NCBI GenBank assembly: GCA_965649095.1
Contig: CBFGJQ010000111.1
Span: forward strand, 1 to 30,230
DNA: 30,230 nt
From: a candidate division WOR-3 bacterium
GTDB lineage: Bacteria > Hydrothermota > Tepidihabitantia > SM23-42 > JAOAFX01
Direction of reading: 5' to 3'
Below the pieces are notes generated by a model that was not told the origin of the DNA, made no database searches, and saw only the letters and a program-made list of their open reading frames with translations. Shown one piece after another: positions 5,227 through 26,651 of the stretch (position 1 is its first letter; the number at the start of each line of letters is the position of its first letter). The translations under genes and the position numbers were made by a program.

Positions 5227-8200
5227 TTAGCGTGCGATTATAAATTTCTCAACTGCCTTGTCTACACTCTCATTATGTTCAGCAAAGAGCTGAACGAGAT
5301 AGACACCATTTGAAAGATGATTGTTATAATCATCAAGCCCATCCCAGGGGATCTGATTGTAGCCAGCCTTGCAGAATCGCTCAGGTATCAGTTTAATTAA
5401 CTTCCCGGAGATTGTAAAGATCTTTATCTGGACCCTTCCCGAATGTGTCAGATTGAATGTAAACCAGACATTCCTCCGGTCTCTAATCGGATTGGGATAG
5501 ACTAAAAGGTTTTCAATTGAAATCTTTTCAAATGTCTCGGTATGGAGAACAAGTTGTTTGATTGTCCGATTGTATCTGTTATCACTGACATAGACGGTCA
5601 GTGAGTCTTCACGACTCGGGATGGAAAGTTCTATCTGAAATTCACCGGTGGTATATGAATTCTTGTGATAGATAAAATTATTGCGCAGGTCTATACGATT
5701 TGAGACTTTGTCTTTTCCTACATAGAGAAAGAATCCACGGGTATCCTCTTTTGAATTCAATAAATTTATTCCACTCTCATCTGAGACCACACCAATTAGG
5801 GTAAACTTCTGGTCAACCCAGTCACCATCTTTGAGTCTCCGGCCACCTTCATAGAGGGTAATCTCCGGACCGGTATTATCAGTCCCGGGAAGACCTGTGC
5901 CATAGACCCTTATGGAATCAAGGGTGCCGCTTCTGGTATCCTTATAGGTGCTGAGCTTAATTACCGGGAGATGGGTTGTTGGAACCGATGGCACAATTAT
6001 ATGGGCTGTATCATCCCAGTATCCGTGAAAGATTTCCTTGCCTGAGATCTGATAGTCAAAGGCTCGCCAGGAGCTATCTCCGGTCTGGACCTCGCGATAG
6101 ATATGCCCGCTTATCTTATTTGCGGTGGCGGGGCCAATATATTCAATATGGGTTGTATCGCGGATGAAGGCGGATAGATAATATGGCTTCTGTTCGGAGA
6201 AGATATTTAACTTCGCAAGGGGTCTTACTGAATCAGGGGATGCCACAATTGGTGATCTGTTTTTTACCTTTCGCAAATTCGTTGCCGGGTCACCGAGTAA
6301 AAGATAGGTTGGAATAACACCCGTGGTGTGCTTGGCAATATGGTAGCACTCGCCCATAGTAAGATTGGTATCTGGATTGGTCAATAGCCTGAACAGAACC
6401 CTCCCGAGTACCTCGTTGCTTCCCGAGCTTGAGGAGGAGTGGGCACCCATCGTCCCGATCGCCCCCCCTTTTATCCTTACCATCTCCTCGGCAATGCATT
6501 CATAATCTGAATCGTCAAATCTGCCAACGGTGCAGGAGGCAAAGTAGAAGAAGAATGCCCTCCTTTCATTTTTTATCAACGGTATCTTTGTATCATAGAA
6601 TAGCCCCTCATGGGCAAGTTGATGGGTATTACCATGGCCAAAGAAACAGCCGGCAAATGCCCCCTTATTCAATTCTTTTATAAAATCCTCCATTGCATTC
6701 GGCTTTTTCGTTGGATAGGTAAATGGAGGATAACTGATCATATATAACTTTGCAATATCATATAGAGTATCGGGAATAATGCCCGCTATTCCTTCGGTAG
6801 AGGTTGTATGGACTAATCCTTCCCATTTGTAAATCTCTCCTCCCCATTCGTCATCCGCGGTCAGGAGAATCCTCTTGTTCCATATTCCATCAATATCGCT
6901 ATTCTCATAGGCAATCAGTTTGTCAATAAAATCACGCAGTTCCTGATTTGTGCGCACCGTTATCCTTCCCATCACCATCGCCTCATTTCCGTAAAAGTTC
7001 ACATACTCACCTTCATATATATAATTTGGGGGTATACCGGGATTACCAGAGAGGGTTGTCCCCGCCTCATACATCGGCACAAAATTGGGTGGGTTCTCTT
7101 TCTTGAGATTGTTCTTATAATCATAGGTTGCATCACCAACAATCAGGACATATTTGGGAACAACTGTCCAGTTGTTATAGGCATGGAAGAGAAAATGCTT
7201 GATTGCCAGAGGGTCATATTTACCATAAGCGAAGTCATCAAAGATTGCATCCACAGTAACGACCTTTGTAGAATACTCCCTTTTTCTATAGTTTACCAAG
7301 GGCAGAAGTGAACTATAAAAATTCTTGTGGGTGATGAAGATATATTCACAGCCTGGGTCAGGCACTCTTAACCTTCCGGGATTGGCTAAGACCGGTATCG
7401 CTGGTATTGCCGAGTTGAGCTGGGCAAAGAAGAGAAGTTGAAACGAATCGCAGCTACTTGAGAAGGTGACCCTATCCTGGGAGATTGTGTAGTTTTCAAG
7501 CATCCGCGGAACCTTTAAATTTGTCACATCAAGGAGAAATAGCTTGGATTTGACACCTTTACACCTGATACTATAATCCCCTGGCTTTTCAAAGAGGGCA
7601 TAAAATGGCAGGCTCACATCGCAGACCCGCTGATAGATTAGGTCAATTGAATTCAAAAGGCAGTAAAAGTCGGCGGTAGTTCCTGATGGGCGGGTAATAT
7701 CTATCTTAAAATCGGAAGAGTCGCCGGTAAGGACTCCATTCCCTGTTATCTTATAAGGAGGTAGCGCTAATACCTTGGGAGGGACTATTGTATCTGAGAA
7801 GAAGACCGAACCACCAAGATAGAACCTGAACCAGAATGGCTGCAGGGGTGGGGGCATTGAATCAAAGATTGAGACTACCAGCCTTGCCGTTCCGCTTGCC
7901 CCTGGATGGTGGAGTTTAAAGGAGGTGCTGCTTTCCGGACCCTTACCAGGCGAGATATCCTGCCAGTACCAGTTTGTGCCGGAACGGGTAGGATTGTGGA
8001 TGTCCTCTTCAAGGTGTAAGATTTCATTCACAACCGTATCGGGACTCGTTCCGTTCCAGTTGGCATTGACTTTCTCCATCCTCTTTCCATAGTTGCCACC
8101 AAATGTGAGCCAGTAGCAATTATTTATTGCATAGCCATTTTCAAACCAATTTATTGTTGTATCAGGGATAAAATGGCTCGCGGGAAAACCATAAAAGATT

Positions 8201-9060
8201 AAATAGTCATCCTTATCAAAGGAGTGGTCTTCCTCACCTTCAACATAGATGGGAACTTCAATCAGGGAATCGGGGAAATCTGTCGTAACATTCTGGGGAA
8301 GGAGTTCAAAGGCAGAAGTATAAATCTTTAATGTCTTCGGGTCAAATTGCCTCGGCTCAATACCTCCCTTCTTCAATTCAGCAAAGCCAATTTTGTATAG
8401 TCCCTCTTTTTCAACCTCAACCTTAAACCAGGCCCCAGTTGTAAATGGGTTTTTAATCTCTCGTCCCTTTTGCAGACGACGCCAGGACTTACATTGACTA
8501 TAATTTACGATTGTGCTTGCATAAATCTCCTCAAAGGGGTCGTCGGTGATTGGCAATTGGATCGGTCTCCCCTTAAATTGGACCCTCAATTTTAATCTTC
8601 GCGAAATCACCAACTCTTTTCTGACTGGATTATAACGAACCGGATTGACCTTGATGTTTACTGTGTAGATATCACGAAAATAGCCCGGGGGAGAGGACTC
8701 AACTAAATTCTTGGGATAGTATTCATCTCTATTATATGCCTCACCCAGGGCCTCAACCTGGGGAACTGGTGGTTCATAGATAACCAAAGGGACGGCTGGT
8801 TTAATATCAACCCCTTTAAATCTCATCTCTTCATCCTCTATTATTCTAATTTCAACATCGCCTCCCTGAGGAATACCGACCAGGTAATTGAGCGAAGGGA
8901 GGTTTGGTTCACCAGGCTGAACAGTCCAGGTTGCCCCGGGAAATGAGAGGGACTCCGGGGCCATTCTCTCTTCAGTAAATGTTATCTCTAATCCCTCGAA
9001 ACCGATTGGGTTGAGGGAAATGGCGTTTGCCATGAAAAGGAGTAAGGTAGGATAATCCAT
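5227..9060 (-). CDS. PorU-like C25 (gingipain family) cysteine peptidase with propeptide and C-terminal Ig/CTD
   Basis: C25 propeptide (GEPNLPSL..GIP, PVRYNP), PorU-like WFKVEVEKEGLYKI segment, YIFITH, LIVGD, GRI, catalytic FFGHG (H809) and ASC (C843), YLLLGDPA, DNTGPEI, CTD VYPNP...IFTISGKLI...WDG...NGVYLVQL. Confidence 0.85.
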   Translation of the reverse strand: MDYPTLLLFMANAISLNPIGFEGLEITFTEERMAPESLSFPGATWTVQPGEPNLPSLNYLVGIPQGGDVEIRIIEDEEMRFKGVDIKPAVPLVIYEPPVPQVEALGEAYNRDEYYPKNLVESSPPGYFRDIYTVNIKVNPVRYNPVRKELVISRRLKLRVQFKGRPIQLPITDDPFEEIYASTIVNYSQCKSWRRLQKGREIKNPFTTGAWFKVEVEKEGLYKIGFAELKKGGIEPRQFDPKTLKIYTSAFELLPQNVTTDFPDSLIEVPIYVEGEEDHSFDKDDYLIFYGFPASHFIPDTTINWFENGYAINNCYWLTFGGNYGKRMEKVNANWNGTSPDTVVNEILHLEEDIHNPTRSGTNWYWQDISPGKGPESSTSFKLHHPGASGTARLVVSIFDSMPPPLQPFWFRFYLGGSVFFSDTIVPPKVLALPPYKITGNGVLTGDSSDFKIDITRPSGTTADFYCLLNSIDLIYQRVCDVSLPFYALFEKPGDYSIRCKGVKSKLFLLDVTNLKVPRMLENYTISQDRVTFSSSCDSFQLLFFAQLNSAIPAIPVLANPGRLRVPDPGCEYIFITHKNFYSSLLPLVNYRKREYSTKVVTVDAIFDDFAYGKYDPLAIKHFLFHAYNNWTVVPKYVLIVGDATYDYKNNLKKENPPNFVPMYEAGTTLSGNPGIPPNYIYEGEYVNFYGNEAMVMGRITVRTNQELRDFIDKLIAYENSDIDGIWNKRILLTADDEWGGEIYKWEGLVHTTSTEGIAGIIPDTLYDIAKLYMISYPPFTYPTKKPNAMEDFIKELNKGAFAGCFFGHGNTHQLAHEGLFYDTKIPLIKNERRAFFFYFASCTVGRFDDSDYECIAEEMVRIKGGAIGTMGAHSSSSSGSNEVLGRVLFRLLTNPDTNLTMGECYHIAKHTTGVIPTYLLLGDPATNLRKVKNRSPIVASPDSVRPLAKLNIFSEQKPYYLSAFIRDTTHIEYIGPATANKISGHIYREVQTGDSSWRAFDYQISGKEIFHGYWDDTAHIIVPSVPTTHLPVIKLSTYKDTRSGTLDSIRVYGTGLPGTDNTGPEITLYEGGRRLKDGDWVDQKFTLIGVVSDESGINLLNSKEDTRGFFLYVGKDKVSNRIDLRNNFIYHKNSYTTGEFQIELSIPSREDSLTVYVSDNRYNRTIKQLVLHTETFEKISIENLLVYPNPIRDRRNVWFTFNLTHSGRVQIKIFTISGKLIKLIPERFCKAGYNQIPWDGLDDYNNHLSNGVYLVQLFAEHNESVDKAVEKFIIAR
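5237..5264 (-). promoter_or_regulatory. Candidate internal sigma70 promoter for uvrB (TAGACA-16-TATAAT)
   Basis: Minus strand -35 at 5264-5259 and -10 at 5242-5237, within the last codons of the upstream C25 gene. Confidence 0.4.
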
Positions 9061-9067
9061 AAATTAT

Positions 9068-9235
9068 CTATTTAAGCGGTCTTGCCTCGTCAATGAGCAT
9101 AATTGGAATATCGTCTTTAATCGGATAGGCAAGTTTGCATTTATGGCAGAGTAACTCCTCTGCCTTACGGTCATATTCCAATTCGCCCTTACACTTCGGG
9201 CAGACCAATATCTCTAAGAGTTCCGGCTTGAGCAT
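9068..9235 (-). CDS. Trm112/YcaR family protein (55 aa)
   Basis: Hand translation: [55 protein letters not shown]; LEILVCP, two CxxC, YPI.DDIPIML. Below the ORF-track cutoff. Confidence 0.93.
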
Positions 9236-10707
9236 AAGACCTCCTCTTCCTTAAATCGTAATGTTAAGATCTTCTCTTTAAGGGAACCGAAACCAAGGCT
9301 CAAAAAGCCCAGGGTGTAGAAGAGTAAAAAAGGAATCAAGACGAGTTGAAAATTCATAATCACATAGAGGAGTCCCATTAATATATAGCATCCAAATAAA
9401 ATTTCCAGAAAGGGGATGAGAAGTTTTCTCTCCAGATGATAAGTCTGCCTTGCCCCACCCGACTTCGGAGTTCGGGTAAAGATATTGTTCTTCTTCATCA
9501 GTCCTTCAATGATGGCCCTGGTGTTTGAGATCGAAAGGCCCATGGTGTAGGCGATTACGCCGGAGATATAAGGAATTTTTCTTTTGTAGTTTTGATAAGA
9601 TTCTTTTTGTGAGAATATGTAGAGGAACGGATACCCGATTGCTCCGATGGTAAAGAAAGAAAGGAAGATATAATAACCCTGAGGCACGAGTCTTTCCACT
9701 TTGAAATAGACAATAGGTAGAGAAAAGATGCCCAAAAACAACATTGCAACAAAATTGATATGCGCAGTCAGATGGACAAATGCCTCATATTTTGCCAGAG
9801 GTCTCAGTTGGGATTTTAATACCAGTTTCAGCAGTTTACAGGCAACCTGGAAGGTTCCCTTTGCCCAGCGGTTCTGTTGAAGGCGGAAACTGTCAACGGT
9901 CTCCGGCAATTCACCTGGGACAACCAAATCTCCCCGATACACTATCTTCCAGCCCCGCAGTTGAACGCGATAGGAGAGGTCAAGGTCCTCAGCAAGGGTA
10001 TCACTGTGCCAGCCACCCGCATCAATGATTGCAGACTTACGCCATATGCCGCAGGTTCCATTAAAATTTATAAAGAAGCCGGCTTTAGACCTTAACTCCT
10101 GCTCCATCGCAAAATGGTTGTCAAGGCCAATTGCCTGTGCCCTGGTAAGGAATGAACGGTCGGAATTGAGGTGCCCCCAGCGGGCCTGAACACCGCCGAC
10201 CTCCGGCGACGAAAATTCAGGCATCAATTCCGTCAAAAAATTTTTTGGGGGAACAAAATCCGCATCAAAGATTGCAATAAATTCTCCCTTTGCCAGCTTT
10301 AGACCGTGTTGTAATGCCCCGGCCTTAAAACCCCTTCTCCTTTTTCTGCTAAGATGTTTTATGTCGTATCCCTCTTCCCTTTTCATCCTGATGATATTTT
10401 CCACAATTGTCTTTGTTTCATCATCTGAGTCGTCAAGAATTTGAATCTCAAGCCTTTCTTTGGGATAATCTAAGTTCAAGACACTGTTTATCAGACGGCG
10501 AATCACAAATTTTTCATTATATACAGGCAACTGGATAGTCACCAATGGGAAGGAATTTAACCTCTTAGACGGGGCCTCCTCGCCGGATGGATTCTTTCTC
10601 AAAATCTTAAATTTAAAATAGTAATATAACAAAAGGAAAGAGTGGAGGGAATAGAAGAAGAGGATAAAAATTATAAATGTATAAAAGGTTACGATAAAGG
10701 CAATCAC
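9214..10707 (-). CDS. GT2 processive glycosyltransferase (cellulose synthase-like / CslA-type)
   Basis: [46 protein letters not shown] (D,D,D,QxxRW); N- and C-terminal TM helices. GTG start overlaps the upstream stop (GTGA). Confidence 0.88.
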
Positions 10708-11891
10708 TCAGACCTCTCCGCGACGGGTTTGACATCAACCGGGAAGAGCGGTTCACAGATAATTCCCTTTAACCTAAGCATCTTTAGATAAGCCATCTCC
10801 GGATAGAATATAATCTTATCCAATTTTTTTGGAATGTCAAGGGTCGTAATACCGATGCAGATACCGCCGAGTTCATAGGCAATCTTTGCGGGAAGATCAA
10901 TCCGCCTTTTCAGTTTAATTGTAAGGTATGGCTTCTGCTGGTGGTCAAATCCAATTTCACACTCTTTAATATCATCGCTATTAAACAATTTACCGGATAT
11001 GGAGAGGGGTTTTTTGGGGTCCTCATTCAAATATACTACCCTTTCCATCCCGGACTCGTTATCCGCAACCGCGTAGCAAGCAAAGTCCCCTGGTGTTAGT
11101 GCCTCTCTGATATCTTCTATCTGATAGTAAGAGGGCATCCTTAGAATTATTGCCCTCTCCCTTTTCTCAATTCTATATTGAAGGTCCAACAAATCTAAAC
11201 GCGTCTTTATCTTTTTAAATGCCTCACTGATGGGGATTGCAGTCGTATCCCAGATTAGTTTATAATCTAAACTTTTTATGGTCGGTGGGGTGATCTTTTT
11301 CTTTTTGTTGATATTGGAGATCCTCACATACCAGTATACCGAGGAATCGGGTAGTCCGGCCCAGATTATTGCTGGTAAGAAATTTTTCTTAGAAATCATT
11401 AAAAACCCAATCATCTCCCGCCATCTCATCGGGTCAAGGAATGGAACATTGGCCTTAAATTGATAAGTGTAGAAATTATCTTTAAGACCAATGTATTCAA
11501 ACTTATCAAATTCAAGCATCCGCTTAATCTGGGCAAATATATCAGACTCCTCGCCCCGCGCAGATTCTTTCCATTCTCTATCTATCTTTGTCCACTCTAA
11601 ATCGTTAATTCCTATATACGCAAAGGTATAACTGCTTTCTGGAGATTCCCAGATACCTCTAATATCTTCGCCATACCCGATAATACATTTGCCTTTTCCA
11701 TTTATATGCACCAATCTCGTCTTTAATTCGTAGATATAGGCAAAAGATTTTTGATGGAAAAAGTTCTCTACCCAGTTTTTGACCTCCTCTTCTGGTCTGG
11801 GAAGGTATTTGGTATATTGAAGACAACTTAAAAAGAGGATATTCACCAATATTAAAACCTTTATTGAGCAGTGGGAATTATGTGACCACAC
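10704..11891 (-). CDS. Putative lipoprotein: N-terminal LppX/LolA-like beta domain plus C-terminal SecD P1-like domain
   Basis: Lipobox ILFLS-C (C23). C-terminal half follows SecD P1 by eye (AFKKIKTRLD, IILRMP, LFNSDDIKECEIGFDHQQKPYLTIKL, PLFPVDVKPVAERS). No TM helices after the signal. Confidence 0.55.
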   Translation of the reverse strand: MWSHNSHCSIKVLILVNILFLSCLQYTKYLPRPEEEVKNWVENFFHQKSFAYIYELKTRLVHINGKGKCIIGYGEDIRGIWESPESSYTFAYIGINDLEWTKIDREWKESARGEESDIFAQIKRMLEFDKFEYIGLKDNFYTYQFKANVPFLDPMRWREMIGFLMISKKNFLPAIIWAGLPDSSVYWYVRISNINKKKKITPPTIKSLDYKLIWDTTAIPISEAFKKIKTRLDLLDLQYRIEKRERAIILRMPSYYQIEDIREALTPGDFACYAVADNESGMERVVYLNEDPKKPLSISGKLFNSDDIKECEIGFDHQQKPYLTIKLKRRIDLPAKIAYELGGICIGITTLDIPKKLDKIIFYPEMAYLKMLRLKGIICEPLFPVDVKPVAERSE

Positions 11892-11896
11892 ATTTT

Positions 11897-11924
11897 ATTA
11901 TAGCCAAAAATGGGAAGACTTCAA
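11897..11924 (-). promoter_or_regulatory. Sigma70 promoter of the left operon (TTGAAG-16-TATAAT), leaderless GTG 5 nt downstream
   Basis: Minus -35 at 11924-11919, -10 at 11902-11897, GTG at 11891. Confidence 0.6.
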
Positions 11925-12116: not shown

Positions 12117-15100
12117 ATGAAAAAGTCTTTATTCTCCTTTTTGCTTCTATTTGTGTTTGGTGTGAGCCAGGAAGTAGGGGCAAGGTATTTGATAATCACC
12201 CATGACAATTTTTATGATGCAATCCTACCCTATGCCCAGTGGAAGCATAAGATGGGACTGCGCACAAAGATTGTCCGGGTCCCTTCAGAACTCGCCCAGA
12301 ATTCCACGGCAATCAGGAATTATATTGTGAATGCATATAACAACTGGCTGATAAAGCCGGAATTTATACTATTTGTTGGTGGATACCCTTATATCCCCTG
12401 GTCTTTTAGTAATACCCCTTATGGTGATAATAATTATACAAATATGACTGGAGATGTGCGCAATGAGATTCTCTCGGGAAGGTTAACAGTGAGGGATGTT
12501 AATCAGGCACAGACGGTTGTTGCAAAGATGTTGAAGTATGAAAGAACCCCTGACCTTACTGATTCAACCTGGTTTAATAAGGGTTGTTTGATTGCCAATG
12601 CCTATGGTTCTAATGGCTCTCCGGACGATGATTCTGCCCTCTATCGCCAGGATACCTGGTATGTTGCCGGATTGATGGTGAGCAGTGGCTATGCTAAGGT
12701 TGATACATTCTATGCCCTTAATGGTGACAATGCAGATTCGGTTCGCAATGCTACAAATAATGGAAGGGAATTTGTCCTCTATCGGGGTAGTGCTACAAAT
12801 AACTGGTATCCGCCATTTAATGTAAATCCTGATATCCTTGCCAATGGAAACAAACTGCCCATTGTGATTTCTGCAACTTGTGGAACATTGGGAACTGGTT
12901 CAAGTCCGGCAACCGCCGAGTACTGGTTTTTAACCGGCACCCCAACCACACCAAGGGGCGCGGCAGGCTACTTCGCTACGACAACCACTGGCACCGGACT
13001 TGCTAATTATAGAAGTGCCGTCACCAGGGGTTTCTTTGACGGTGTCTTTTTATATAAGAGGCGAACCTTTGGCCAGGCTTGTGAGGATGGCAGATTGAGG
13101 GTTTATAATATGGGTTCTACCTCAGAATATCAGGGCTTTACCACCGTTGGCGACCCGGCAATGCAAATCTGGACTGCAACGCCAAGGATAATCACCGTCT
13201 TACACGATACTATGCTCTATGCAGGCACTGACGAAACATTAAATGTTACTGTCCAGTATCAAGGCAATCCGGTTGAATCCGCCTATGTCTGTATAGTGCT
13301 TGATACCTTAATTTATCAAACCGGCTGGACGGGTTCTGCAGGCACGATAGCCTTCACATTCTATGCAACCCAACCCGGGAATATGGATATAACTGTGACG
13401 GGCAGAAATCTTTATCCATATGAAGGGACCGCCTCAATCGTGGCGGGGGATGTCTTTCTCAGTTATATCGGGAATATCATCGCGGATTCGCTTGGCAACA
13501 ACAATGACACCATAAACCCCGGGGAGACGATTTTGCTCTGGGCAACAATAAAGAATCTCGGCAGTGTTTCAGCACAAGATGTTAATGCAATCTTAAGAAC
13601 TACCGATACCTTCGTTGTCATCACTGACAGCATTTCCCTTTACGGCAATATCAACCCGGGTGTTAGTTCAAACGGACTGAAACCATTTGTCTTTACGGTC
13701 TCACCAAAGACTAACGCCCACCTTATTCCTTTTCATATTATAATTAAAGACGCAAATGACAGCACCTGGATTGCCAGTTTTTCTCTAATGACTACGGGTG
13801 TAAGTGGTGGTGGCAGTGGGACTGGCCCAGACCCCTATGGCTATTACATATATGATAATACCGATACATTGACGGGCAATGCACCAGTCTATACCTGGTT
13901 TGAAATTGCACAACAAGCTGGGGGGCCGGGGACAATTATCTGGCAGATAACCAATGAAGATGCGGATACGGTAACTTTGCCTTTGCCATTTACATTCAAA
14001 TTCTACGGCATAAATTACAATACAATCGGAATTTGTTCCAATGGCTTTGTAGAGATTGGTGGGGCGACATATCCATACAGTTATAATGACCCGATTCCGA
14101 CTGTGGGCAAGGCAAAGCACTTTGCTGCACCGTACTGGGATGATTTAGACCCAAGTGCTTCCGGGCATGGCGATATATATCGGCATTATGACCAAAACAA
14201 TCATCTCTGGTATGTAGAGTTCTATCAGGTTGCACTTGGCTATGGAAGTGGCGCCTGGCAGACATTCCAGATTGTCCTCCGCGACCCGGCTTATTATCCC
14301 ACTCCCACGGGAGACGGTGAGATTCTTTTCTATTATCACACCGTTTCAAATGCAACAAGCAATACGGTGGGAATAGAGGATCACACTGAGACCCGGGGGT
14401 TGCAATATCTCTTTAACAATAGCTATGACCCCAATGCCGCACCGCTGGCAAATGGCAGGGCGCTTTTGATTACCACTAAACCACCAGCAAGTCAGCACTT
14501 GCCCTGGATAAATCTTTTAAGTTTTACGGTCAATGACGCGGGCGGGAATAATAATGGAATTCCCGAACCAGATGAGACAGTAGAAATTGTATTATATATT
14601 AAAAATAGTGGGGATACATCGGTTACCAATGTTACCGGGAAACTCAGGGAAAGCTCAACGAGTCTATCTCTTGTTGATAGTATTGCCAATTTTGGTAATA
14701 TGAATATTGGAGCCCAGGCGAATAATATTTCAGATCCCTATATTGTGCAGATTGCCCACGACCCGGTTGACACCTTTGTTGGTATGACTGTCTATTTCAC
14801 AGGCAATAATGGCAATTATGAGACCTACGCCTATTTTACGCTCCACATACATGCGGAAACTGGGATTGAGGAATCTGCAAGTTTGCAATCTGCAATCCGA
14901 AATCCGCAATTAGAGGTCCATCCAAATCCATTCCGTGATTACACAGTAATCAAGTATACACTAAGCACTATGCACTATGCACCGGATAATAAACTCCCTA
15001 CTGCCTACTCCATAGTGCCTACTATCCGTATCTACGATGCCACTGGCAGGTTGGTTAGACAATTTAACCATTTAACCAATTACCAATTTAATGAAATTGT

Positions 15101-15209
15101 GTGGTTTGGCGATGATGACATGGGTCGCAAACTTCCGACCGGTCTCTATTTTGTGAGACTCGCAACCGACGAATTCAAGGAAATTCGGAAAGTTATACTC
15201 ATTTGGTGA
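12117..15209 (+). CDS. Secreted C25 family protein without propeptide; Ig modules, NIDO-like domain and T9SS/FlgD-like CTD
   Basis: Signal peptide followed directly by YLIITH; ILFVGG, GRL, YRGSA in place of xxGHG, SATC (C255), GDPAMQIW; GNNNDTINPGET-type modules; GPDPYGYYIYDNTD...APYWDDL; CTD VHPNPF...IYDATGRLV...GLYFV. Confidence 0.85.
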   Translation: MKKSLFSFLLLFVFGVSQEVGARYLIITHDNFYDAILPYAQWKHKMGLRTKIVRVPSELAQNSTAIRNYIVNAYNNWLIKPEFILFVGGYPYIPWSFSNTPYGDNNYTNMTGDVRNEILSGRLTVRDVNQAQTVVAKMLKYERTPDLTDSTWFNKGCLIANAYGSNGSPDDDSALYRQDTWYVAGLMVSSGYAKVDTFYALNGDNADSVRNATNNGREFVLYRGSATNNWYPPFNVNPDILANGNKLPIVISATCGTLGTGSSPATAEYWFLTGTPTTPRGAAGYFATTTTGTGLANYRSAVTRGFFDGVFLYKRRTFGQACEDGRLRVYNMGSTSEYQGFTTVGDPAMQIWTATPRIITVLHDTMLYAGTDETLNVTVQYQGNPVESAYVCIVLDTLIYQTGWTGSAGTIAFTFYATQPGNMDITVTGRNLYPYEGTASIVAGDVFLSYIGNIIADSLGNNNDTINPGETILLWATIKNLGSVSAQDVNAILRTTDTFVVITDSISLYGNINPGVSSNGLKPFVFTVSPKTNAHLIPFHIIIKDANDSTWIASFSLMTTGVSGGGSGTGPDPYGYYIYDNTDTLTGNAPVYTWFEIAQQAGGPGTIIWQITNEDADTVTLPLPFTFKFYGINYNTIGICSNGFVEIGGATYPYSYNDPIPTVGKAKHFAAPYWDDLDPSASGHGDIYRHYDQNNHLWYVEFYQVALGYGSGAWQTFQIVLRDPAYYPTPTGDGEILFYYHTVSNATSNTVGIEDHTETRGLQYLFNNSYDPNAAPLANGRALLITTKPPASQHLPWINLLSFTVNDAGGNNNGIPEPDETVEIVLYIKNSGDTSVTNVTGKLRESSTSLSLVDSIANFGNMNIGAQANNISDPYIVQIAHDPVDTFVGMTVYFTGNNGNYETYAYFTLHIHAETGIEESASLQSAIRNPQLEVHPNPFRDYTVIKYTLSTMHYAPDNKLPTAYSIVPTIRIYDATGRLVRQFNHLTNYQFNEIVWFGDDDMGRKLPTGLYFVRLATDEFKEIRKVILIW
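14884..15090 (+). repeat. In-frame 7-bp tandem repeat tracts in CTD 1
   Basis: TGCAATC-type x4 (14884-14911), GCACTAT-type x4 (14958-14985), GCCTACT-type x4 (14996-15023), TTTAACCA/ATTACCA-type (15063-15090). Confidence 0.85.
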
Positions 15210-15295
15210 AGAGATGGTTCCGGAGGTCTATTATAAGAGGCCCGTCATTTCAGTAAGGGACAGTTTGCCGATTTTAGCAATCAAACATTAGATGC

Positions 15296-15323
15296 TTGAC
15301 CAGTCTTAATTTTTCTGTATACT
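15296..15323 (+). promoter_or_regulatory. Sigma70 promoter of the cap operon (TTGACC-16-TATACT), leaderless GTG 5 nt downstream
   Basis: -35 at 15296-15301, -10 at 15318-15323, in-frame GTG at 15329. The track's TTG start is the -35 box itself. Confidence 0.65.
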
Positions 15324-15328
15324 CAAGT

Positions 15329-16525
15329 GTGAAGGTTGGTTCCGGCATTCTCTTACTATTTATCCTGCTTATAGTAATCATCATTTTTGCGCGCATTGAG
15401 TGGACAAAGCATTTGAAAAATTTAAAGGCGATTAAGATTAGAATTGTTGTAAATGGCACAAGGGGAAAATCAACAGTGACAAGGCTTATCGGGGCCGGGT
15501 TAAAAGCAGGTAATCTCAAGGTCTTCGCAAAGACTACGGGCACAAAGCCGAGGATTGTTATAAATAATAGTATTGAAATCCCGGTGATAAGGCCGGGAAG
15601 GCCGAATATCAAGGAACAGATCAAGGTAATGAAAATGGCAGTTCAGGAGGGGGTAGATGCAGTGGTGCTTGAAAATATGTCAATAAGACCCGACCTCCAG
15701 TGGACCGAAGAGAGTAAAATCATAAAGCCAGATATTGTGGTAATAACGAATGTGCGCGCCGATCACCTTGATGTAATGGGACCAACCCTAAGGGATATTG
15801 CCAAAAATTTTATCAAGGCAGTCCCAAAGGGGGCAAAGGTCTTTACTGCCGAGCAAGAAAATTATTCTTACTTGAGAAGCGTTGCGGAAGAAAGGAGGAT
15901 TGAAATCTTTCGCTGTATTGAAGAAGATATCACGGATGAAGAGATGGAAGGGTTTGGTTATGTAGAACATAAAGAGAATGTTGCCCTTGCCCTTGGCGTT
16001 TGTAAATCTCTTGGTATCCCGAAAGATTTAGCATTGAAGGAGATGTATAAATATATCCCTGACCCGGGCATATTAAGAAAGTGGGTATTGAAGATAGAGG
16101 ATAAAAATATCACCCTCTTTAATGCCCTCGCGGCAAATGACCCGGATTCTACTTATCTAATTTACAAGCGACTGGGCAATTCAGGGGGGCGATTTTATAT
16201 AATTGTAAACTGTCGTGCCGACAGACTTGACCGCTCCGTGCAGATGGCAAGACTGGTTAAGGAAAAGATCCCGGCAAAGCTCTATTTTTTAACCGGTGGT
16301 AATACCAGGGCCTTTTACCGTGAGGCAATGAGACTCAAGATGGAGAAAGGGAGGATTATTGACCTCGGTGGAAAAAGTATTGCATCTGCCTGTGCTACGA
16401 TTATTGACAGAGTAGAAGCTAATGCTACAATTTTAGCAATCGGTAACATCGTGGGTTATGGAGAGCAACTGATTGAATACTTGATTAAAAAAGGCAATCC
16501 AAATCTAAAGGAGTTTCATAGATGA
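15329..16525 (+). CDS. capB: Poly-gamma-glutamate synthase CapB/PgsB (Mur-ligase family)
   Basis: N-terminal TM anchor, VNGTRGKSTVTRLI P-loop, AKTTGT, NIKEQ, ENMSIRP, TNVRADHLDVMG, ANDPDST, NCRADRLDRS. Confidence 0.93.
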   Translation: MKVGSGILLLFILLIVIIIFARIEWTKHLKNLKAIKIRIVVNGTRGKSTVTRLIGAGLKAGNLKVFAKTTGTKPRIVINNSIEIPVIRPGRPNIKEQIKVMKMAVQEGVDAVVLENMSIRPDLQWTEESKIIKPDIVVITNVRADHLDVMGPTLRDIAKNFIKAVPKGAKVFTAEQENYSYLRSVAEERRIEIFRCIEEDITDEEMEGFGYVEHKENVALALGVCKSLGIPKDLALKEMYKYIPDPGILRKWVLKIEDKNITLFNALAANDPDSTYLIYKRLGNSGGRFYIIVNCRADRLDRSVQMARLVKEKIPAKLYFLTGGNTRAFYREAMRLKMEKGRIIDLGGKSIASACATIIDRVEANATILAIGNIVGYGEQLIEYLIKKGNPNLKEFHR

Positions 16526-16971
16526 TTGTTGTGGCAGTTGGTCTGGGGATGGTGTTGAACTTTTTACTCACCGAGACGATTGGACTTGCTGCCGGCGGTG
16601 TCGTCGTCCCGGGATATATTGCCTTGAGCCTTCATAAACCCGATATGGTCTTAAGCACAATTTTAGTTGCCCTGGTGACATTTATTATCGTGAAAGTCCT
16701 TTCCAATTATATCCTCCTCTACGGAAGGAGGATGCTTATCCTCTGTATCATAATCGGTTATTTAATTGGTTATCTCACCCGTCTTTATCCGACTTTATCC
16801 TATGAGACACTGAATTTTGATATCACAACGATAGGATTTGTAGTACCCGGCTTGATTGCCTATTGGATGCATCGTCAGGGAATAATTGAAACGGTCAGCA
16901 CGATGCTTATCGCTGCAGTCTTTGTGCGTTTTACTCTGATAATCATTACCGGGGGTGCACTATCTCAGTAA
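16522..16971 (+). CDS. capC: Poly-gamma-glutamate biosynthesis membrane protein CapC/PgsC
   Basis: 149 aa hydrophobic protein; GGVVVPGYIAL, LYGRR, IGFVVPGLIAYWMHRQG; ATGA overlap with capB. Confidence 0.93.
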   Translation: MIVVAVGLGMVLNFLLTETIGLAAGGVVVPGYIALSLHKPDMVLSTILVALVTFIIVKVLSNYILLYGRRMLILCIIIGYLIGYLTRLYPTLSYETLNFDITTIGFVVPGLIAYWMHRQGIIETVSTMLIAAVFVRFTLIIITGGALSQ

Positions 16972-19938: not shown

Positions 19939-20898
19939 ATGTCCAGAAATTTCGTTTTGATTATTGTGCTACTAATAATGGGTTGCCATCGGCCCCGGGT
20001 TGAGACTCATAAATTTGTCATTGTCAGCGAATGTAAACTCCCTGGTTATGCCAAGGATATAGATATAAAGGGGAATTATGCCTATATCGCCAATGACCAG
20101 GGTGGCCTGCAGATTGTTGATGTCTCAAATCCAGAGTCTACATTTATCGTGGGTAGTTATATCAGTCAAAAGAACTATCAAGGAGTTGCGGTCAGGGATA
20201 GTTTTGCCTATGTGGCAGTTGCCGCCTCGGATGGGGGAATAGCAATCTTTAATGTGCAGAATCCGGACTCAATTGTGCTTGTGGGGCAAGACCCTTCCTT
20301 TTATGCCTATCGGATTGCTGCCCCAAAGAATGATACACAATTTGTCTATGTTGCCGCCCGTTACTGGTTGATTGTTGAGGATGTCTCCTGGCCACAGTAT
20401 CCAAGTTTCATCCGCCGGTTTGCCACACCCGGCAATGTCCACAGCCTATCTGTTATTGATTCTATCGTCTATCTTGCCTGTGAGCAGATGGGCTTGCTCA
20501 TCTATAATCTAAACCATCCGGATAGCACGGCAAGGGTTGGGGCGATAGATACGCCATCAAATGCCCGTGATATATTCGTATGCGAGAACAGGGCATATAT
20601 TGCGGATGGCTATGGTGGTCTTGTAATAATTGATATCTCAGATCCTGGTAATCCCGAAATCTTAAGTTCCTATGATACACCGGGTTATGCCCAGGGTATC
20701 TTTGTAAAAGATAATCTTGCCTATCTAGCCGATGGTAGCGAGGGATTAAAGATTTTTGATGTTTCAGATTCTCAAAATCCACAAATTTATGGTGAGTTGA
20801 AGACGCCATATGCCTATAATCTCTATGTAAGAGACAATTTGGTCTATCTTGTTGACAGAGACCTCGGATTGGTTATAATAAAGGAGGAGAATAGATGA
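19939..20898 (+). CDS. LVIVD-repeat beta-propeller lipoprotein
   Basis: Lipobox LIMG-C; at least six repeats of the type YAYIANDQGGLQIVDVSNP / RAYIADGYGGLVIIDISDP / LAYLADGSEGLKIFDVSD. Confidence 0.88.
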   Translation: MSRNFVLIIVLLIMGCHRPRVETHKFVIVSECKLPGYAKDIDIKGNYAYIANDQGGLQIVDVSNPESTFIVGSYISQKNYQGVAVRDSFAYVAVAASDGGIAIFNVQNPDSIVLVGQDPSFYAYRIAAPKNDTQFVYVAARYWLIVEDVSWPQYPSFIRRFATPGNVHSLSVIDSIVYLACEQMGLLIYNLNHPDSTARVGAIDTPSNARDIFVCENRAYIADGYGGLVIIDISDPGNPEILSSYDTPGYAQGIFVKDNLAYLADGSEGLKIFDVSDSQNPQIYGELKTPYAYNLYVRDNLVYLVDRDLGLVIIKEENR

Positions 20899-23800
20899 TT
20901 CTCTTCTGTCTCTATTTTGCCTTTCTGGCGGGTAATCCTCTTATTAAAGTAATAGAAAAAGGTAACAGGAGAATTGTGCTAAATGTCTCTTTCGGTGAAG
21001 AGAAAAAAGAGCCGATAAATATCGGTTTTATCCTCTCGCCCGTTATTCCCTCTTTTGACTATCGGTTAATCAATTCTGATACCTCCGAAATAAAAGAGAC
21101 AGCTGTCAATAATAATCCGGTAGAAATAGGATGCCCAATTAACCTGATGGGATATAATCTATTCCCTGTGCTTGTTCATTCAAATTTCACTCAAAACAAT
21201 AGGAAGATAAATGTGCGCAAAATGGACTTAAGACTTAATTTTGAGAGCTACCAAGATATAAACCTGCCACAGAGCCTGGGACAGGTATTTAAAAATTTAA
21301 TCCTAAATTATGAGGATAACCCCCAGACAAAGCCAAAGGGACTTTTGATTATTACACCAAATTCTTTTTATAATGCGGTCTTGCCACTCGCGGACTGGAA
21401 GGAAAAGAAAGGCTACCGGGTTACGATTGCCCGACTCGCAGAGACAGGGAATACCCCATCGGCAATAAAGAATTATATTGCCAATGCCTACCATAACTGG
21501 AATCCACCATTGGAGTATGTGATACTCATCGGTGATAAGGATTCCTTGCCCGCATACTCCTATGCGGCCCCGGTGGGTGCTACAGACTATCCGTATACCC
21601 TGATTGATGGCGATGATTTCCTTGCCGAATTGCTGATTGGACGAATATCTGTAGCAACTATAAGTGAACTGGATAAGGTCGTGGCAAAGATTCTTGGCTA
21701 CGAAAGGAATCCTTATACTGGTGAAACCCAGTGGTATGAAAGGGCTTTAGTGGTCGGCGCAAATATGCCGGTCGGTATGACCACACCCATACCAGTAAAG
21801 AGATGGGTCAGAGAAAAATTGATTGAATATGGTATCAATACGGTTGATACAGTCTTCTACCCGATGGCACCATCCAATATTACAAATTCAATAAATCAGG
21901 GCGTTCTGTTTGTAAATTATCGCTCAGGAGAAGGAGACCCCGATGGCTGGCCATTTCCGCTTTTTAAAAATACTGAGGTATATGCATTGAATAACGGCTG
22001 GAAACTACCAATAGTTACGAGTATTACCTGCTATACTGGCAATTTCCAGGCTGAGCCCTGCTTTGGCGAGGCCTGGTTAAGGGCTGGCGCTAATCCCTCA
22101 AACCCCAAGGGGGCGGTAGGATTTATCGGTGCTTCCGCGGCTTCAACCAGCAGTCGCTGGAATAACTGTTTAGATTATGGAATCTACTGGGGAATATTAA
22201 AAGAAGAGATATACAATTTAGGTCCGGCCCTCTATCGGGGTAAGCTGGAAGTCTATATGAACTTTCCTGCTGAGACAACCTGGAATAGTGGAAGTTCCTT
22301 TTACTTCCATACCTATAATCTGCTTGGCGACCCTTCTCTTGAAATCTGGACCGATGTGCCTCAGAATTTTGTCGTTAATCACCAGATGACGATACCGGTG
22401 GGAACGAATTCTTTCTCAGTCCAGGTTTTGAATTCATCATCCCAGCCGGTAAAAGGGGCGATGGTAAGTCTTTATAAGAAGAACGAAACAAAAGAGATTG
22501 ACTTTACGGATGCCGGTGGTCTTGCCAGATTTCAAATTACTACCAGCACACCTGATACACTCTTTGTTACAGTCACAAAGCATAACTTCAAACCCTATTG
22601 TGGCTATGCCCTCGTAAACAATTCCGGAGTCTATGTTGGATACTACAGTCATACAATCTCTGACCCCGGTGGTAATAATAATGGTGAGATAAACCCGGGG
22701 GAGACAATCAACCTTTCAATTACCTTAAAGAATTTTGGTAATTCAATGACCGCCAGCAATGTCTCGGCAAAACTCTCTACAACTGACCCTTTAATTACAA
22801 TCACCGATTCAATAAAAAATTATGGGAGTATCAACCCGGGGGCAACGGTCGGTTCTTCACCGTTCATCTTTAATGTTTCTCAGAATATTAAAAATAACCA
22901 TCCAATTAAATTTAATCTGACAATTAACTCTTCTCAAGGGAACTGGAGCTCAGTCCTCTGGCTTATTGCAAAGGCAGCCGAATTTGAATATCAGAGGCAG
23001 CAGGTCCTTGATGGCGGAAATGGCGTCCTTGAGCCCGGGGAGACATCGGATTTGACTATCTTTATAAAAAATATCGGTGGGCTTATGGGAACGAATATAA
23101 GCGGTATATTGAGGTCACTCAATCCGGGGATCTCAGTTATTGATTCACTTGGCTCCTTTGGCAATATTCCGCTCGGTGATTCGGCAACAAACTCCAGTAA
23201 CCATTTTCGGATAGGTGCCTCATCACAACTTGCCCCAGGGCATGAAATAAAATTTATTACGATGCTCTCCGGGGATAACAATTTTAAAGATACGGTTGAA
23301 TTCTCTATAATCATCGGTGTAGTTAATGCAAATACACCCACCGGACCTGATGGCTATGGCTATTATGCTTATGACAACACCGATGCCGGTTATCCTGAGG
23401 CACCAACCTATAACTGGATTGAGATTGACCCGGAACTTGGCGGGGCGGGAACGATTCTGAATCTGTTGAATGACGAAACAAAGACAATAAATCTACCCTT
23501 CAATTTCAAATTCTATGGCATAGACTACAACAAGATTTCCATCTCTTCAAATGGCTATGTGGCAATGGATTCAACCTGGATTGCGGATATGTATAACTGG
23601 CGAATTCCTGCAGCAGGCGGTCCGCCCTTACTCATTGCACCATTCTGGGATGATTTGGACCCTAATGCTACAGATTCAAGTGGCAATGTCTGCTACCATT
23701 ACGATGGAACAAATCACCGTTTTCTTGTGGAATGGTCAAGGATTCAACACCTCCATAACCCAATCTATCCAACCCCGGCTGAGCTCCAGACTTTTGAGGT

Positions 23801-24422
23801 AATACTCCTTGACCCAATTTATTATCCGACCCAGACCGGTGATGGGGAAATCCTATTTCAATATAAAAAGATAACCAATGATGACACCTGGCATAACTAT
23901 GCCACAGTTGGTATTGAAGACAAAAATCACATAAATGGGCTTGAATATACCTATGCAAATATCTATCCCCCCTCGGCGGCAATTCTGGCTAATAATCGGG
24001 CGATTAAATTCACAACTGACCAGCCCGACCCATTTCCGGGGGTTGGAGAGAGCAATCTACGACCTACGATTTACGACCGGCGCTTATCGGTCTATCCAAA
24101 TCCATTCCGTGATTACACGGTAATCAAGTATGCACTAAGCCCTATGCACTATGCAACAAATAACAAGGTGCCCAGTGCCTCCTCCCTAGTGCCTATTATT
24201 CGTATTTACGATGTAACAGGTAGACTTGTTAAGGATTTTTCACGACTTACGATTTACGATCTACACCCTACGCAAATTCTCTGGTTTGGCGATGATAACT
24301 CGGGGTGCAAGTTGCCGGCGGGTATTTATTTTATTGAGGTGAAATACAGTAATAATTGGGACGGTGCGATTCATCACACAAATAATATAAGTGAGGTTCA
24401 AAAAATAATTCTGCGGAGATGA
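20895..24422 (+). CDS. Secreted C25 family protein with short N-terminal prodomain, Ig modules, NIDO-like domain and CTD
   Basis: LLIITP, YVILIGD, LLIGRIS, NYRSGEG in place of xxGHG, SITC (C379), YNLLGDPSL; GNNNGEINPGET and GGNGVLEPGET modules; GPDGYGYYAYDNTD...APFWDDL; CTD VYPNPF...IYDVTGRLV...AGIYFI. SD AGGAGG, ATGA overlap. Confidence 0.85.
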   Translation: MILFCLYFAFLAGNPLIKVIEKGNRRIVLNVSFGEEKKEPINIGFILSPVIPSFDYRLINSDTSEIKETAVNNNPVEIGCPINLMGYNLFPVLVHSNFTQNNRKINVRKMDLRLNFESYQDINLPQSLGQVFKNLILNYEDNPQTKPKGLLIITPNSFYNAVLPLADWKEKKGYRVTIARLAETGNTPSAIKNYIANAYHNWNPPLEYVILIGDKDSLPAYSYAAPVGATDYPYTLIDGDDFLAELLIGRISVATISELDKVVAKILGYERNPYTGETQWYERALVVGANMPVGMTTPIPVKRWVREKLIEYGINTVDTVFYPMAPSNITNSINQGVLFVNYRSGEGDPDGWPFPLFKNTEVYALNNGWKLPIVTSITCYTGNFQAEPCFGEAWLRAGANPSNPKGAVGFIGASAASTSSRWNNCLDYGIYWGILKEEIYNLGPALYRGKLEVYMNFPAETTWNSGSSFYFHTYNLLGDPSLEIWTDVPQNFVVNHQMTIPVGTNSFSVQVLNSSSQPVKGAMVSLYKKNETKEIDFTDAGGLARFQITTSTPDTLFVTVTKHNFKPYCGYALVNNSGVYVGYYSHTISDPGGNNNGEINPGETINLSITLKNFGNSMTASNVSAKLSTTDPLITITDSIKNYGSINPGATVGSSPFIFNVSQNIKNNHPIKFNLTINSSQGNWSSVLWLIAKAAEFEYQRQQVLDGGNGVLEPGETSDLTIFIKNIGGLMGTNISGILRSLNPGISVIDSLGSFGNIPLGDSATNSSNHFRIGASSQLAPGHEIKFITMLSGDNNFKDTVEFSIIIGVVNANTPTGPDGYGYYAYDNTDAGYPEAPTYNWIEIDPELGGAGTILNLLNDETKTINLPFNFKFYGIDYNKISISSNGYVAMDSTWIADMYNWRIPAAGGPPLLIAPFWDDLDPNATDSSGNVCYHYDGTNHRFLVEWSRIQHLHNPIYPTPAELQTFEVILLDPIYYPTQTGDGEILFQYKKITNDDTWHNYATVGIEDKNHINGLEYTYANIYPPSAAILANNRAIKFTTDQPDPFPGVGESNLRPTIYDRRLSVYPNPFRDYTVIKYALSPMHYATNNKVPSASSLVPIIRIYDVTGRLVKDFSRLTIYDLHPTQILWFGDDNSGCKLPAGIYFIEVKYSNNWDGAIHHTNNISEVQKIILRR
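24056..24273 (+). repeat. In-frame 7-bp tandem repeat tracts in CTD 2
   Basis: (T/C)NTACGA x3 (24056-24076), GCACTAT-type (24132-24152), GCCTAGT-type x4 (24170-24197), TTTACGA-type x5 (24239-24273). Confidence 0.85.
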
Positions 24423-25797: not shown

Positions 25798-26253
25798 TTA
25801 ATACAACCGCCCTTGGTTTTTTATGATTTTTACTATAAACCTGCAGAATCTCTCAAGGTCACCCAAATAGTTCTGGATAATCTGGTAAAGTTCTTCTTTG
25901 GTTATTTCATGATAAAAATGAACTAACCTAATTCTAGACCCGGCCATTTTTAATAATGTATCTTCGGCAAATTCTTTGGGAACGATTTTGTATTTACCTA
26001 ACAGCTGCGCAATTTCTTTATATGTTGATGGTCTCTCTTTTGGTGGAAGCGAAAGGCGCGAGAGGAGATGATTGCCAATATCAAAAATTGCCTCAAGTGC
26101 CCGACGCAAATAATGCTCAGCAATAGCAAAATTTTCACCTTCAAGAAATTGATTTAGGGAAAATTCTTTAAAACTGTATAATTTCTTAAGATCGGCATTT
26201 ATCTCAGCGAGTCTATTTTCAAGCAATTCTCTATTAAGAGGAATTTTTTTCAC
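25798..26253 (-). CDS. hepT: HEPN/DUF86 ribonuclease toxin (HepT-like)
   Basis: EHYLRRALEAIFDIGNH, RIRLVHFY (Rx4HxY); GTG start overlapping the antitoxin stop. Confidence 0.85.
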   Translation of the reverse strand: MKKIPLNRELLENRLAEINADLKKLYSFKEFSLNQFLEGENFAIAEHYLRRALEAIFDIGNHLLSRLSLPPKERPSTYKEIAQLLGKYKIVPKEFAEDTLLKMAGSRIRLVHFYHEITKEELYQIIQNYLGDLERFCRFIVKIIKNQGRLY

Positions 26254-26651
26254 GAAAATGCTTCTGTTGTTATTTTTTTATACTCATTCATTAGCGGTGC
26301 GAAAAATAAGTAATCTCTAATCGTAATCTCTTCGTAGTCCATACGAAACTTTGGTTCGATTTCAAATAAAACCCTACCAGACTTAATCACTTCAAATTGA
26401 AAATCAAGCGGAGTAAATTGGAGGAGAGAAATGTCAATATTCTCTTTCGGAAATTCTTGTGCGAAGATATGATAAAGGCGAAAGTAAAGACTTAAACTAT
26501 CCTTTCTTTCAGGTTTATAAGTGAAGACCAAACCGATGTCAAAGTCGTTTTTCCGTTGTTTGCCACCCATAATCTGGGAACCAAATAGATAAACTATTCC
26601 TACCTTCATCGAGCTCAGTTTTTTCTTTAATTTTGAAGAAAGATTTATCAT
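26250..26651 (-). CDS. mntA: Minimal nucleotidyltransferase antitoxin (MntA-like)
   Basis: YLFGS-x10-DFD (GSx10DxD), IDISLL, EVIKSGRVLF; upstream of and coupled to the HEPN gene. Confidence 0.85.
   Translation of the reverse strand: MINLSSKLKKKLSSMKVGIVYLFGSQIMGGKQRKNDFDIGLVFTYKPERKDSLSLYFRLYHIFAQEFPKENIDISLLQFTPLDFQFEVIKSGRVLFEIEPKFRMDYEEITIRDYLFFAPLMNEYKKITTEAFS

Follow-up and report, generated by a model that had tools for sequence, protein, structure and literature searches.

Introduction

Discussions of SecD mostly treat its P1 domain solely as the proton-driven arm that moves in SecDF, and the half-barrel fold of the LprG/LppX/LolA type holds acyl chains in its solved relatives. Here we describe a gene in which these two kinds of domain are predicted to be joined in a single lipoprotein. 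The gene lies on a 30,230-nucleotide (nt) stretch of DNA from a candidate division WOR-3 bacterium (assembly GCA_965649095.1, contig CBFGJQ010000111.1, positions 1–30,230; hereafter the window), where it occupies positions 10704–11891 of the minus strand. An earlier note on this DNA, made from the letters alone, had read it as a lipoprotein that fuses an LppX/LolA-like domain to a free-standing SecD P1 domain, and we followed up this reading with profile searches, structure models and a comparison of loci across the WOR-3 phylum.

Two described systems bear on such a protein. The head of SecDF P1 has been described as a polypeptide-binding element, P1 has been proposed as a docking site for the chaperone SurA on the basis of AlphaFold models and low-resolution electron microscopy, and SecDF has been proposed to contact the Omp85-family beta-barrel assembly (BAM) machine (PMC9987972). 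In type IX secretion, which the literature that we found presents as a system of Bacteroidota only or, at the widest, of the Fibrobacteres–Chlorobi–Bacteroidetes (FCB) superphylum, the sortase PorU cleaves the sorting domain of the cargo and joins the cargo to a glycolipid supplied by PorZ (PMC10202324). The reviews of type IX secretion that we consulted name no protein like ours among the described components, and literature searches that combined PorU with LolA-like proteins, type IX secretion with WOR-3, or the SecDF P1 domain with lipoproteins found no description of this architecture.

A predicted lipid-anchored protein of two modules

As judged from its sequence and from a structure model, the protein encoded at 10704–11891 is a lipid-anchored envelope protein of two modules, laid out as follows.

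10704–11891, minus strand: lipoprotein gene, whole open reading frame (ORF) with a GTG start, 395 residues (ORF list and translation)
11823–11891, minus strand: predicted signal peptide, 23 residues up to the lipobox cysteine (codon 11823–11825; cysteine invariance and hydrophobicity)
11268–11810, minus strand: LprG/LppX/LolA-like half-barrel domain, residues about 28–208 (structural matches)
10716–11273, minus strand: SecD P1 homologue with a split ferredoxin-like base and an inserted beta-rich head, residues about 207–392 (structure and profile matches)

The database gene call for this ORF uses a TTG start at 11849, 14 codons later, and gives 381 residues; residue numbers from the alignment and structure searches reported below refer to that call and are therefore 14 lower than in the 395-residue reading. 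By inspection, the signal of the GTG reading has a lysine in its n-region and an 11-residue hydrophobic core followed by L-F-L-S-C, and the cysteine of this lipobox (residue 23 of the 395-residue reading) is invariant in 66 aligned relatives. The TTG start removes most of the signal peptide and leaves 8 residues ahead of the conserved cysteine, while the GTG at 11891 restores the signal.

The lipobox that the earlier note had seen is thus an invariant cysteine placed after the only hydrophobic segment of the protein. Its further statement that SecD transmembrane helices are lacking agrees with our results as well, since the signal peptide (residues 6–30) is the sole 19-residue window with a Kyte–Doolittle mean above 1.6 and no match to SecD_SecF_C (PF02355) was obtained. 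The ORF terminates a few residues past the P1 domain, and neither the SecD_SecF_C membrane domain nor the six transmembrane helices are present. All five peptide stretches that had been quoted for a P1 base and head occur in the translation, in the order given, from about residue 222 to the end.

The C-terminal half is homologous to the P1 domain of SecD

We built an AlphaFold2 model of the window protein with the alignment of its relatives, which had a predicted local distance difference test (pLDDT) score of 93.5 and a predicted template-modelling score of 0.88. In this model, residues 193–378 matched the isolated P1 domain of Thermus SecDF (3aqo_A) with a Z score of 13.9, with 181 of 221 residues aligned at a root-mean-square deviation of 3.8. 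The next structural matches of the C-terminal half had Z scores of 7.3 at most and covered only about 70 residues of a ferredoxin-like core; since these short matches are scattered over residues 192–380, they point to the arrangement known from SecD, in which a head is inserted into a split ferredoxin-like base. SecDF structures (5yhf, 3aqo and 5xap, E about 1e-7) were also among the top Foldseek matches of the model in the PDB. Across the 66 aligned sequences, R217 and D338 are invariant in this half.

At the sequence level, the window protein taken alone gave no SecD-type Pfam match at E values up to 10, the only match being an irrelevant domain of unknown function at E 0.088. Searches of PDB sequences with the single sequence and with a profile of its close relatives (alignment A1) returned only noise, hhalign comparisons of A1 with the SecD of the same genome and with a 25-sequence SecD alignment gave no signal (probability 0.2%), and a search of the ESM Atlas returned only low-scoring clusters without names. 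As both the single sequence and the close-relative profile are blind to SecD, the case for homology is carried by the wider family. When the phylum was scanned with the Pfam model SecDF_P1_head (PF22599, gathering cut-off 27 bits), the matches comprised the SecD of every genome and, in addition, two members of the lipoprotein family, at 72.2 and 36.7 bits; direct scans placed the same model at the C-termini of three family members, with 69.1, 61.7 and 33.6 bits. Within the family-wide alignment (A3), five of the 63 members matched SecDF_P1_head at E values up to 0.01, and one more matched SecD_1st. The window's subfamily could be connected to a Pfam-positive member by hhalign with a probability of 99.5% (E 2.7e-22) over 353 columns that run through the head, and the family-wide alignment, window protein included, aligned with the phylum's SecD with a probability of 95.4% (E 1.8e-8) over 173 columns. 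This second match covers SecD residues 76–332, which is the span of SecD's own Pfam P1-domain matches. Used as a hidden Markov model against the PDB, the family-wide alignment found the Thermus P1 chain 3aqo at E 2.5e-13 and E. coli SecD at E 6e-6.

Profile comparison and modelled structure agree here, and by both the C-terminal half is homologous to SecD P1, a relation that goes beyond likeness of fold; the P1 base and head that had been proposed from the letters of the window were thus recovered by structural match and by family profile alike. Membership in SecDF_P1_head holds for the family by transitive homology, while the window's own sequence does not qualify by the Pfam rule. Compared with SecD and SecDF (SecD_1st PF21760, SecDF_P1_head PF22599; PDB 3AQO, 3AQP, 5XAN, 5MG3), the homology extends over the whole domain with shared motifs in the same order. 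The lipoprotein differs from them in having no transmembrane helices, no SecD_SecF_C domain and no secF or yajC neighbour, in carrying a lipid anchor and in being fused to another domain, and the window's subfamily also falls below Pfam detection and lacks the short helical insert of the head. Without the membrane part of SecD, proton-driven movement is not to be expected of this protein. A fragment of a split secD was considered and ruled out by the normal secD–secF pair that the earlier note had asked about, which lies on another contig (C104) of the same genome: an intact secD of 504 residues (TIGR01129, 448.5 bits, cut-off 244.4), with a secF of 298 residues directly after it.

The N-terminal half has an LprG/LppX/LolA-like fold

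In an all-against-all structural search with VIA-align, residues 14–194 of the model matched mycobacterial LprG (3mh9) with a Z score of 16.8 over 179 aligned residues, and the same half matched LprF (4qa8) with Z 15.7 and LppX (2byo) with Z 13.5. Many LolA, LolB and RseB chains followed with Z scores of 8–11, LolB itself reaching 8.1. Foldseek likewise listed LprG, LprF, LppX and LolA among the top PDB matches of the model, with E 1e-6 for the N-terminal domain. The LppX/LolA-like assignment of the earlier note therefore stands at the level of the modelled fold. According to the titles of their PDB entries, LprG crystal structures hold PIM (phosphatidylinositol mannoside) and triacylglyceride.

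Sequence searches gave no counterpart to these matches. No Pfam or NCBIfam match to LppX_LprAFG or to LolA-like families was found for the N-terminal half, PDB sequence searches with three profiles returned nothing for it, and one family member gave a weak match to DUF4292 (E 0.007). Conserved positions are nevertheless present in this half, where a second cysteine (C55) and residues within the motifs RGEESD and WAGLPDSS are invariant across the 66 sequences.

LprG, LprF and LppX (LppX_LprAFG) resemble the WOR-3 protein in being lipoproteins with the same half-barrel fold, and they are its best structural matches (160–179 residues aligned over the three). Yet no sequence similarity to them was found, the host belongs to a diderm phylum of the FCB group, no gene for a major facilitator superfamily or MmpL transporter was seen beside the lipoprotein gene, and the WOR-3 protein has the additional P1 domain, the conserved polar motifs and the second invariant cysteine. 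LolA, LolB and RseB belong to the same fold class, and the WOR-3 protein is lipid-anchored like LolB, but they match less well than LprG, the genome has a canonical LolA at another locus and the WOR-3 family occurs in only about half of the phylum.

The two-module architecture was recovered from a distant relative as well. A protein about 21% identical to that of the window, from another WOR-3 family, gave a model with a pLDDT of 92.1 that matched LprG with Z 14.9 and 3aqo_A with Z 13.0 (185 residues aligned). A second confident model with the same two fold matches indicates that the architecture belongs to the whole family.

Distribution of the family is limited to some WOR-3 genomes

A word-indexed search found homologues with 35–68% identity in at least 84 clusters (90% identity level), and those with names were all from WOR-3, Stahlbacteria or TA06. 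An exhaustive profile search of 1.84 billion representatives returned just 106 clusters. Among 272 WOR-3 genomes, the lipoprotein profile matched 135 (87 of the 181 of high quality), with a single match in nearly each. By these searches the lipoprotein family is limited to WOR-3 and to only a portion of that phylum, which answers the question of taxonomic range that the earlier note had raised. Family members are labelled ‘hypothetical protein’ in the sources, and no Pfam or NCBIfam model covers them. Both component domains are of kinds already known; what is new, as far as the searched libraries and literature show, is a P1 domain excised from SecD, fused to an LprG-like lipoprotein domain and linked to the genes for PorU and an Omp85-type protein.

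The neighbourhood is built around an Omp85-type gene and PorU

In the window, three further members of a packed minus-strand cluster follow the lipoprotein gene.

9214–10707, minus strand: BcsA-like processive family 2 glycosyltransferase (GT2) synthase, 497 residues, QQNRW motif, membrane-embedded (Pfam and NCBIfam)
9068–9235, minus strand: Trm112/YcaR-like zinc-ribbon ORF, 55 residues (Pfam Trm112p, 61.4 bits; NCBIfam YcaR, 53.5 bits, below the cut-off)
5227–9060, minus strand: PorU type IX secretion sortase, 1277 residues, with a C-terminal sorting domain (NF033707, 468.6 bits, cut-off 420; Peptidase_C25; Por_Secre_tail)

The GT2 gene overlaps the lipoprotein stop by 4 nt, the Trm112-like ORF overlaps the end of the GT2 gene by 22 nt and stops 7 nt before the start of PorU, and uvrB comes after PorU in the series. 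Compared with BcsA in the PDB, the GT2 aligned at E 7e-24 over residues 12–442, from the glycosyltransferase domain through the membrane helices, which together with the QQNRW motif assigns it to the processive beta-glycan synthase type. The earlier note had placed the lipoprotein gene at the head of an operon with the GT2 and a PorU-like gene. The gene does head this cluster and the sortase is a true PorU, but the GT2 turned out to be only an optional neighbour and the cluster also contains the 55-residue Trm112-like ORF.

We then compared the loci of family members. In 13 species-level loci, PorU came after the lipoprotein gene in all 12 that extend far enough, and a GT2 gene stood between the two in five of the 13, counting one (L014) in which the contig ends inside the GT2 gene. 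For the family at large, we scored 47 loci, one per genus where possible, that span about 20–68% identity:

Omp85-type gene immediately upstream, same strand: 35 of 47 loci
PorU downstream, same strand, within 2.2 kilobases (kb): 32 of 47
GT2 directly downstream: 21 of 47
Trm112-like ORF: 22 of 47
Omp85-type gene and PorU both: 22 of 47
At least one of the four neighbours: 45 of 47

The recurrent order is Omp85-type gene, lipoprotein gene, GT2 (optional), Trm112-like ORF (optional) and PorU, so that the Omp85-type gene and PorU, rather than the GT2, are its more conserved neighbours. The protein from the upstream gene has 910–1030 residues with a Peptidase_MA_2 domain, a TolB-like PD40 propeller and an Omp85 barrel (for example L049:103-2877, plus strand), and no POTRA domain was found in it by Pfam. 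A variant order was seen in family f13, where a shorter PorU-like gene lies upstream of the series of Omp85-type, lipoprotein and GT2 genes and not downstream (L085:15400-17478, minus strand, and L086).

Two of these neighbours are near-universal in the phylum. The Omp85-type protein was detected in 258 of the 272 genomes and PorU in 264, with one or two matches per genome and nearly always one for the Omp85-type protein. In 16 genomes without the lipoprotein, the Trm112-like ORF still preceded PorU in 11 (among loci L105–L120), and the Omp85-type gene was never upstream of PorU in the roughly 6–7 kb fetched; it is thus only in genomes with the lipoprotein that the Omp85-type gene and PorU were observed together. 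In those that lack it, the Omp85-type gene is followed by an unrelated gene. We also considered that the ‘negative’ genomes might hold a very diverged copy, and rejected this since the genes that lie before PorU (16 genomes), after the Omp85-type gene (16) and after the GT2 (12) are unrelated to it. Trm112–PorU may be the most conserved pair in the phylum. The Trm112-like zinc ribbon, presumably cytoplasmic, is translationally coupled to a secreted sortase.

The GT2 has a distribution of its own. An orthologue was detected in 96 of the 272 genomes and is missing from whole lipoprotein-bearing families, such as f14 (0 of 44), and none was found at E values up to 1e-20 in five genomes (91–99% complete) in which the lipoprotein gene directly precedes PorU. 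In families without the lipoprotein, the GT2 stands alone in unrelated contexts. Judged by these occurrences, the lipoprotein does not depend on the GT2.

A possible role in cell-surface protein export and attachment

We tentatively favour a reading in which the lipoprotein is a passive, energy-independent, lipid-anchored carrier or adaptor that serves to export and attach cell-surface proteins, and would put its chance of being correct a little short of even. A lipid-anchored periplasmic chaperone or carrier had already been suggested in the earlier note. The P1 module would bind an extended segment of a secreted polypeptide or serve as the docking site of a partner protein, as is thought for P1 in SecDF, and the LprG-like module would hold lipid tails, be they those of a glycolipid anchor, of a lipidated product or of the membrane. 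In this way the lipoprotein could connect PorU, the sortase of type IX secretion, to the Omp85-type protein of the outer membrane, the two being named as partners because gene order points to them. In genomes that encode the BcsA-like GT2, the glycan that it makes may enter this surface-attachment step as well.

A more specific proposal is that P1 was captured as a stand-alone lipid-anchored module to form a new accessory subunit of type IX attachment outside Bacteroidota, one that would bridge the Omp85-family protein and PorU and present to the sortase either the extended C-terminal region of the cargo or the lipid anchor; as a whole we consider it rather unlikely. Since roughly half of the WOR-3 genomes with PorU have no member of the family, its distribution would allow for a lineage-specific type IX accessory at most. 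With respect to the attachment complex of Bacteroidota (PorU, PorV, PorQ and PorZ), the lipoprotein is the genomic partner of a true PorU, and its combination of a putative lipid-binding with a putative polypeptide-binding module resembles the logic by which PorZ passes anionic lipopolysaccharide to PorU, but its fold is unrelated to any described component.

Several observations weigh against a carrier or adaptor that serves PorU. The functional assignment draws on fold, homology and gene order only, and profile, Pfam and PDB searches found no sequence-level link of the N-terminal domain to LprG or LolA. PorU is not adjacent in 15 of the 47 loci, although the phylum scan scored two or three PorU candidates per genome, so that cases scored as not adjacent may hide a further paralogue. 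PorU, the Omp85-type gene and the GT2 all occur in genomes without the lipoprotein, which rules it out as a core component of any of the three. Within the order to which the window belongs, the Omp85-type gene is no longer beside the lipoprotein gene; in this genome its two parts lie at contig ends (C301:883-2217 and C376:8944-10389), and the gene after it encodes an unrelated solute-binding lipoprotein. Finally, the distribution of PorZ-like proteins, found in 28 of the 272 genomes including those of lipoprotein-bearing families, is not complementary to that of the lipoprotein.

Among other explanations, the one that fares best is a general factor of outer-membrane biogenesis apart from type IX secretion, either a LolB-like acceptor of lipoproteins or a substrate receptor for the Omp85-type protein, for which the adjacency of PorU would be incidental. 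The LolA/LolB-type fold and the lipid anchor would suit such a factor, and the genome has a LolA while LolB was not found by Pfam. The Omp85-type gene is moreover the commonest neighbour and the sole one of the four in five loci (L062, L068, L069, L071 and L072), its product has no POTRA domain by Pfam, and there is precedent for contacts of P1 to BAM and SurA (PMC9987972). On the other side, the lipoprotein is present in 135 of the 272 genomes as against 258 for the Omp85-type gene, and a distribution over half of the phylum makes a housekeeping role unlikely. The fold is also much closer to LprG (Z 16.8) than to LolB (Z 8.1), and the adjacency to PorU is kept down to about 20% sequence identity. 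Taken together, we regard this explanation as unlikely, if worth keeping in view.

An analogue of BcsB, the periplasmic subunit of cellulose synthase, is distinctly improbable. Here, the lipoprotein would act in the periplasm together with the BcsA-like GT2, taking over the nascent beta-glycan and guiding it to the far side of this compartment, with the Omp85-type protein as the possible exit through the outer membrane. The lipoprotein gene indeed adjoins and is translationally coupled to the GT2 gene in part of the family, the 4-nt overlap of the window recurring in nearly all of the 21 loci in which the GT2 comes next, and the GT2 matches BcsA through the membrane part and carries QQNRW. However, the GT2 is not beside the lipoprotein gene in 26 of the 47 loci and has no detected orthologue in the five genomes with an adjacent lipoprotein–PorU pair or in family f14, it stands by itself among unrelated genes in families devoid of the lipoprotein, and neither fold of the lipoprotein is a known carbohydrate-binding fold. 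BcsB has different folds and a C-terminal membrane helix in place of a lipid anchor. An obligate GT2 partner was rejected, the GT2 being dispensable for the lipoprotein family.

The PorZ distribution also bears on the idea that the lipoprotein is a stand-in for PorZ and hands a glycolipid anchor to PorU. Only sorting-domain matches and no full-length PorZ were found in this genome, and folds of the LprG type carry glycolipids, which would fit the known role of PorZ (PMC10202324). Against this, PorZ-like proteins went undetected in 244 of the 272 genomes irrespective of the lipoprotein and occur together with it in f20, f38, f43 and g51; the distributions are not complementary, and replacement of PorZ is without phyletic support. 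A lipoprotein in the periplasm would also be separated by the outer membrane from a surface-located PorZ, a difficulty that falls away if the lipoprotein is itself exposed at the surface. We therefore hold this explanation to be very unlikely. Least probable of all, and only marginally credible, is a holdase near the Sec machinery of the inner membrane, a lipid-anchored extra P1 that catches polypeptides from SecYEG and supplements SecDF, which is the earlier note's suggestion in its narrow form: it is favoured by the genuine homology to SecD P1, to which the capture of polypeptides by SecDF has been ascribed (PMC9987972), but the gene was never beside secD, secF, yajC or secY in the examined loci, its neighbours encode outer-membrane and cell-surface proteins, the lipid-binding fold would be left unexplained, and there could be no proton-driven pulling without the membrane part.

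Whichever partner the carrier or adaptor may have, a naturally excised, lipid-anchored P1 is a case of the domain being reused alone and offers a simple soluble object for the study of P1 binding. If the bridging proposal were true, P1 would be able to work without proton-motive force. The linkage to PorU and to an Omp85-type protein found throughout the phylum offers a candidate explanation of the way in which an uncultured phylum, with type IX secretion outside Bacteroidota, organises surface attachment, and the lipoprotein family can now be annotated by domain.

Further features of the window and the genome

One more element was noted upstream of the lipoprotein gene.

11897–11924, minus strand: promoter-like hexamers TTGAAG and TATAAT, 16 nt apart (consensus match only)

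The −10-like hexamer ends 5 nt before the GTG at 11891, and at so short a distance the GTG start codon and the transcript start are both putative. Contigs of many metagenome-assembled genomes from the order of the window break off within about 100–600 nt upstream of the lipoprotein gene (loci L005, L006, L008, L009, L013, L015 and L016; contigs G140:C3, G141:C7, G142:C1, G127:C65, G154:C217 and G156:C307). A genomic repeat was considered as the cause of these breaks and rejected, as the window's 225-nt divergent intergenic region occurs only once in the genome. The 403-residue lipoprotein encoded after the Omp85-type gene of this genome was likewise examined as a possible paralogue and is an ATP-binding cassette (ABC) solute-binding protein.

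Divergent from the lipoprotein gene, the plus strand encodes a C25-family peptidase of 1030 residues with a type IX sorting domain, directly followed by the poly-gamma-glutamate synthase genes pgsB (392.5 bits) and capC/pgsC, all within 12117–16971. A third C25 gene (1175 residues) lies at 20895–24422, and an overlapping, toxin–antitoxin-like pair of a HepT-like ribonuclease and a Pol-beta-type nucleotidyltransferase occupies 25798–26651 on the minus strand.

Type IX parts detected in the genome as a whole were SprA/Sov, PorU and PorV-like paralogues, and about 25 ORFs have a sorting domain at the C-terminus. Several genes for PorV-like barrels (below the cut-off) directly follow sorting-domain genes (C170:1844-2857, C434:8318-9179 and C276:8635-9611), an arrangement that suggests dedicated pairs of a cargo and a PorV-like protein.

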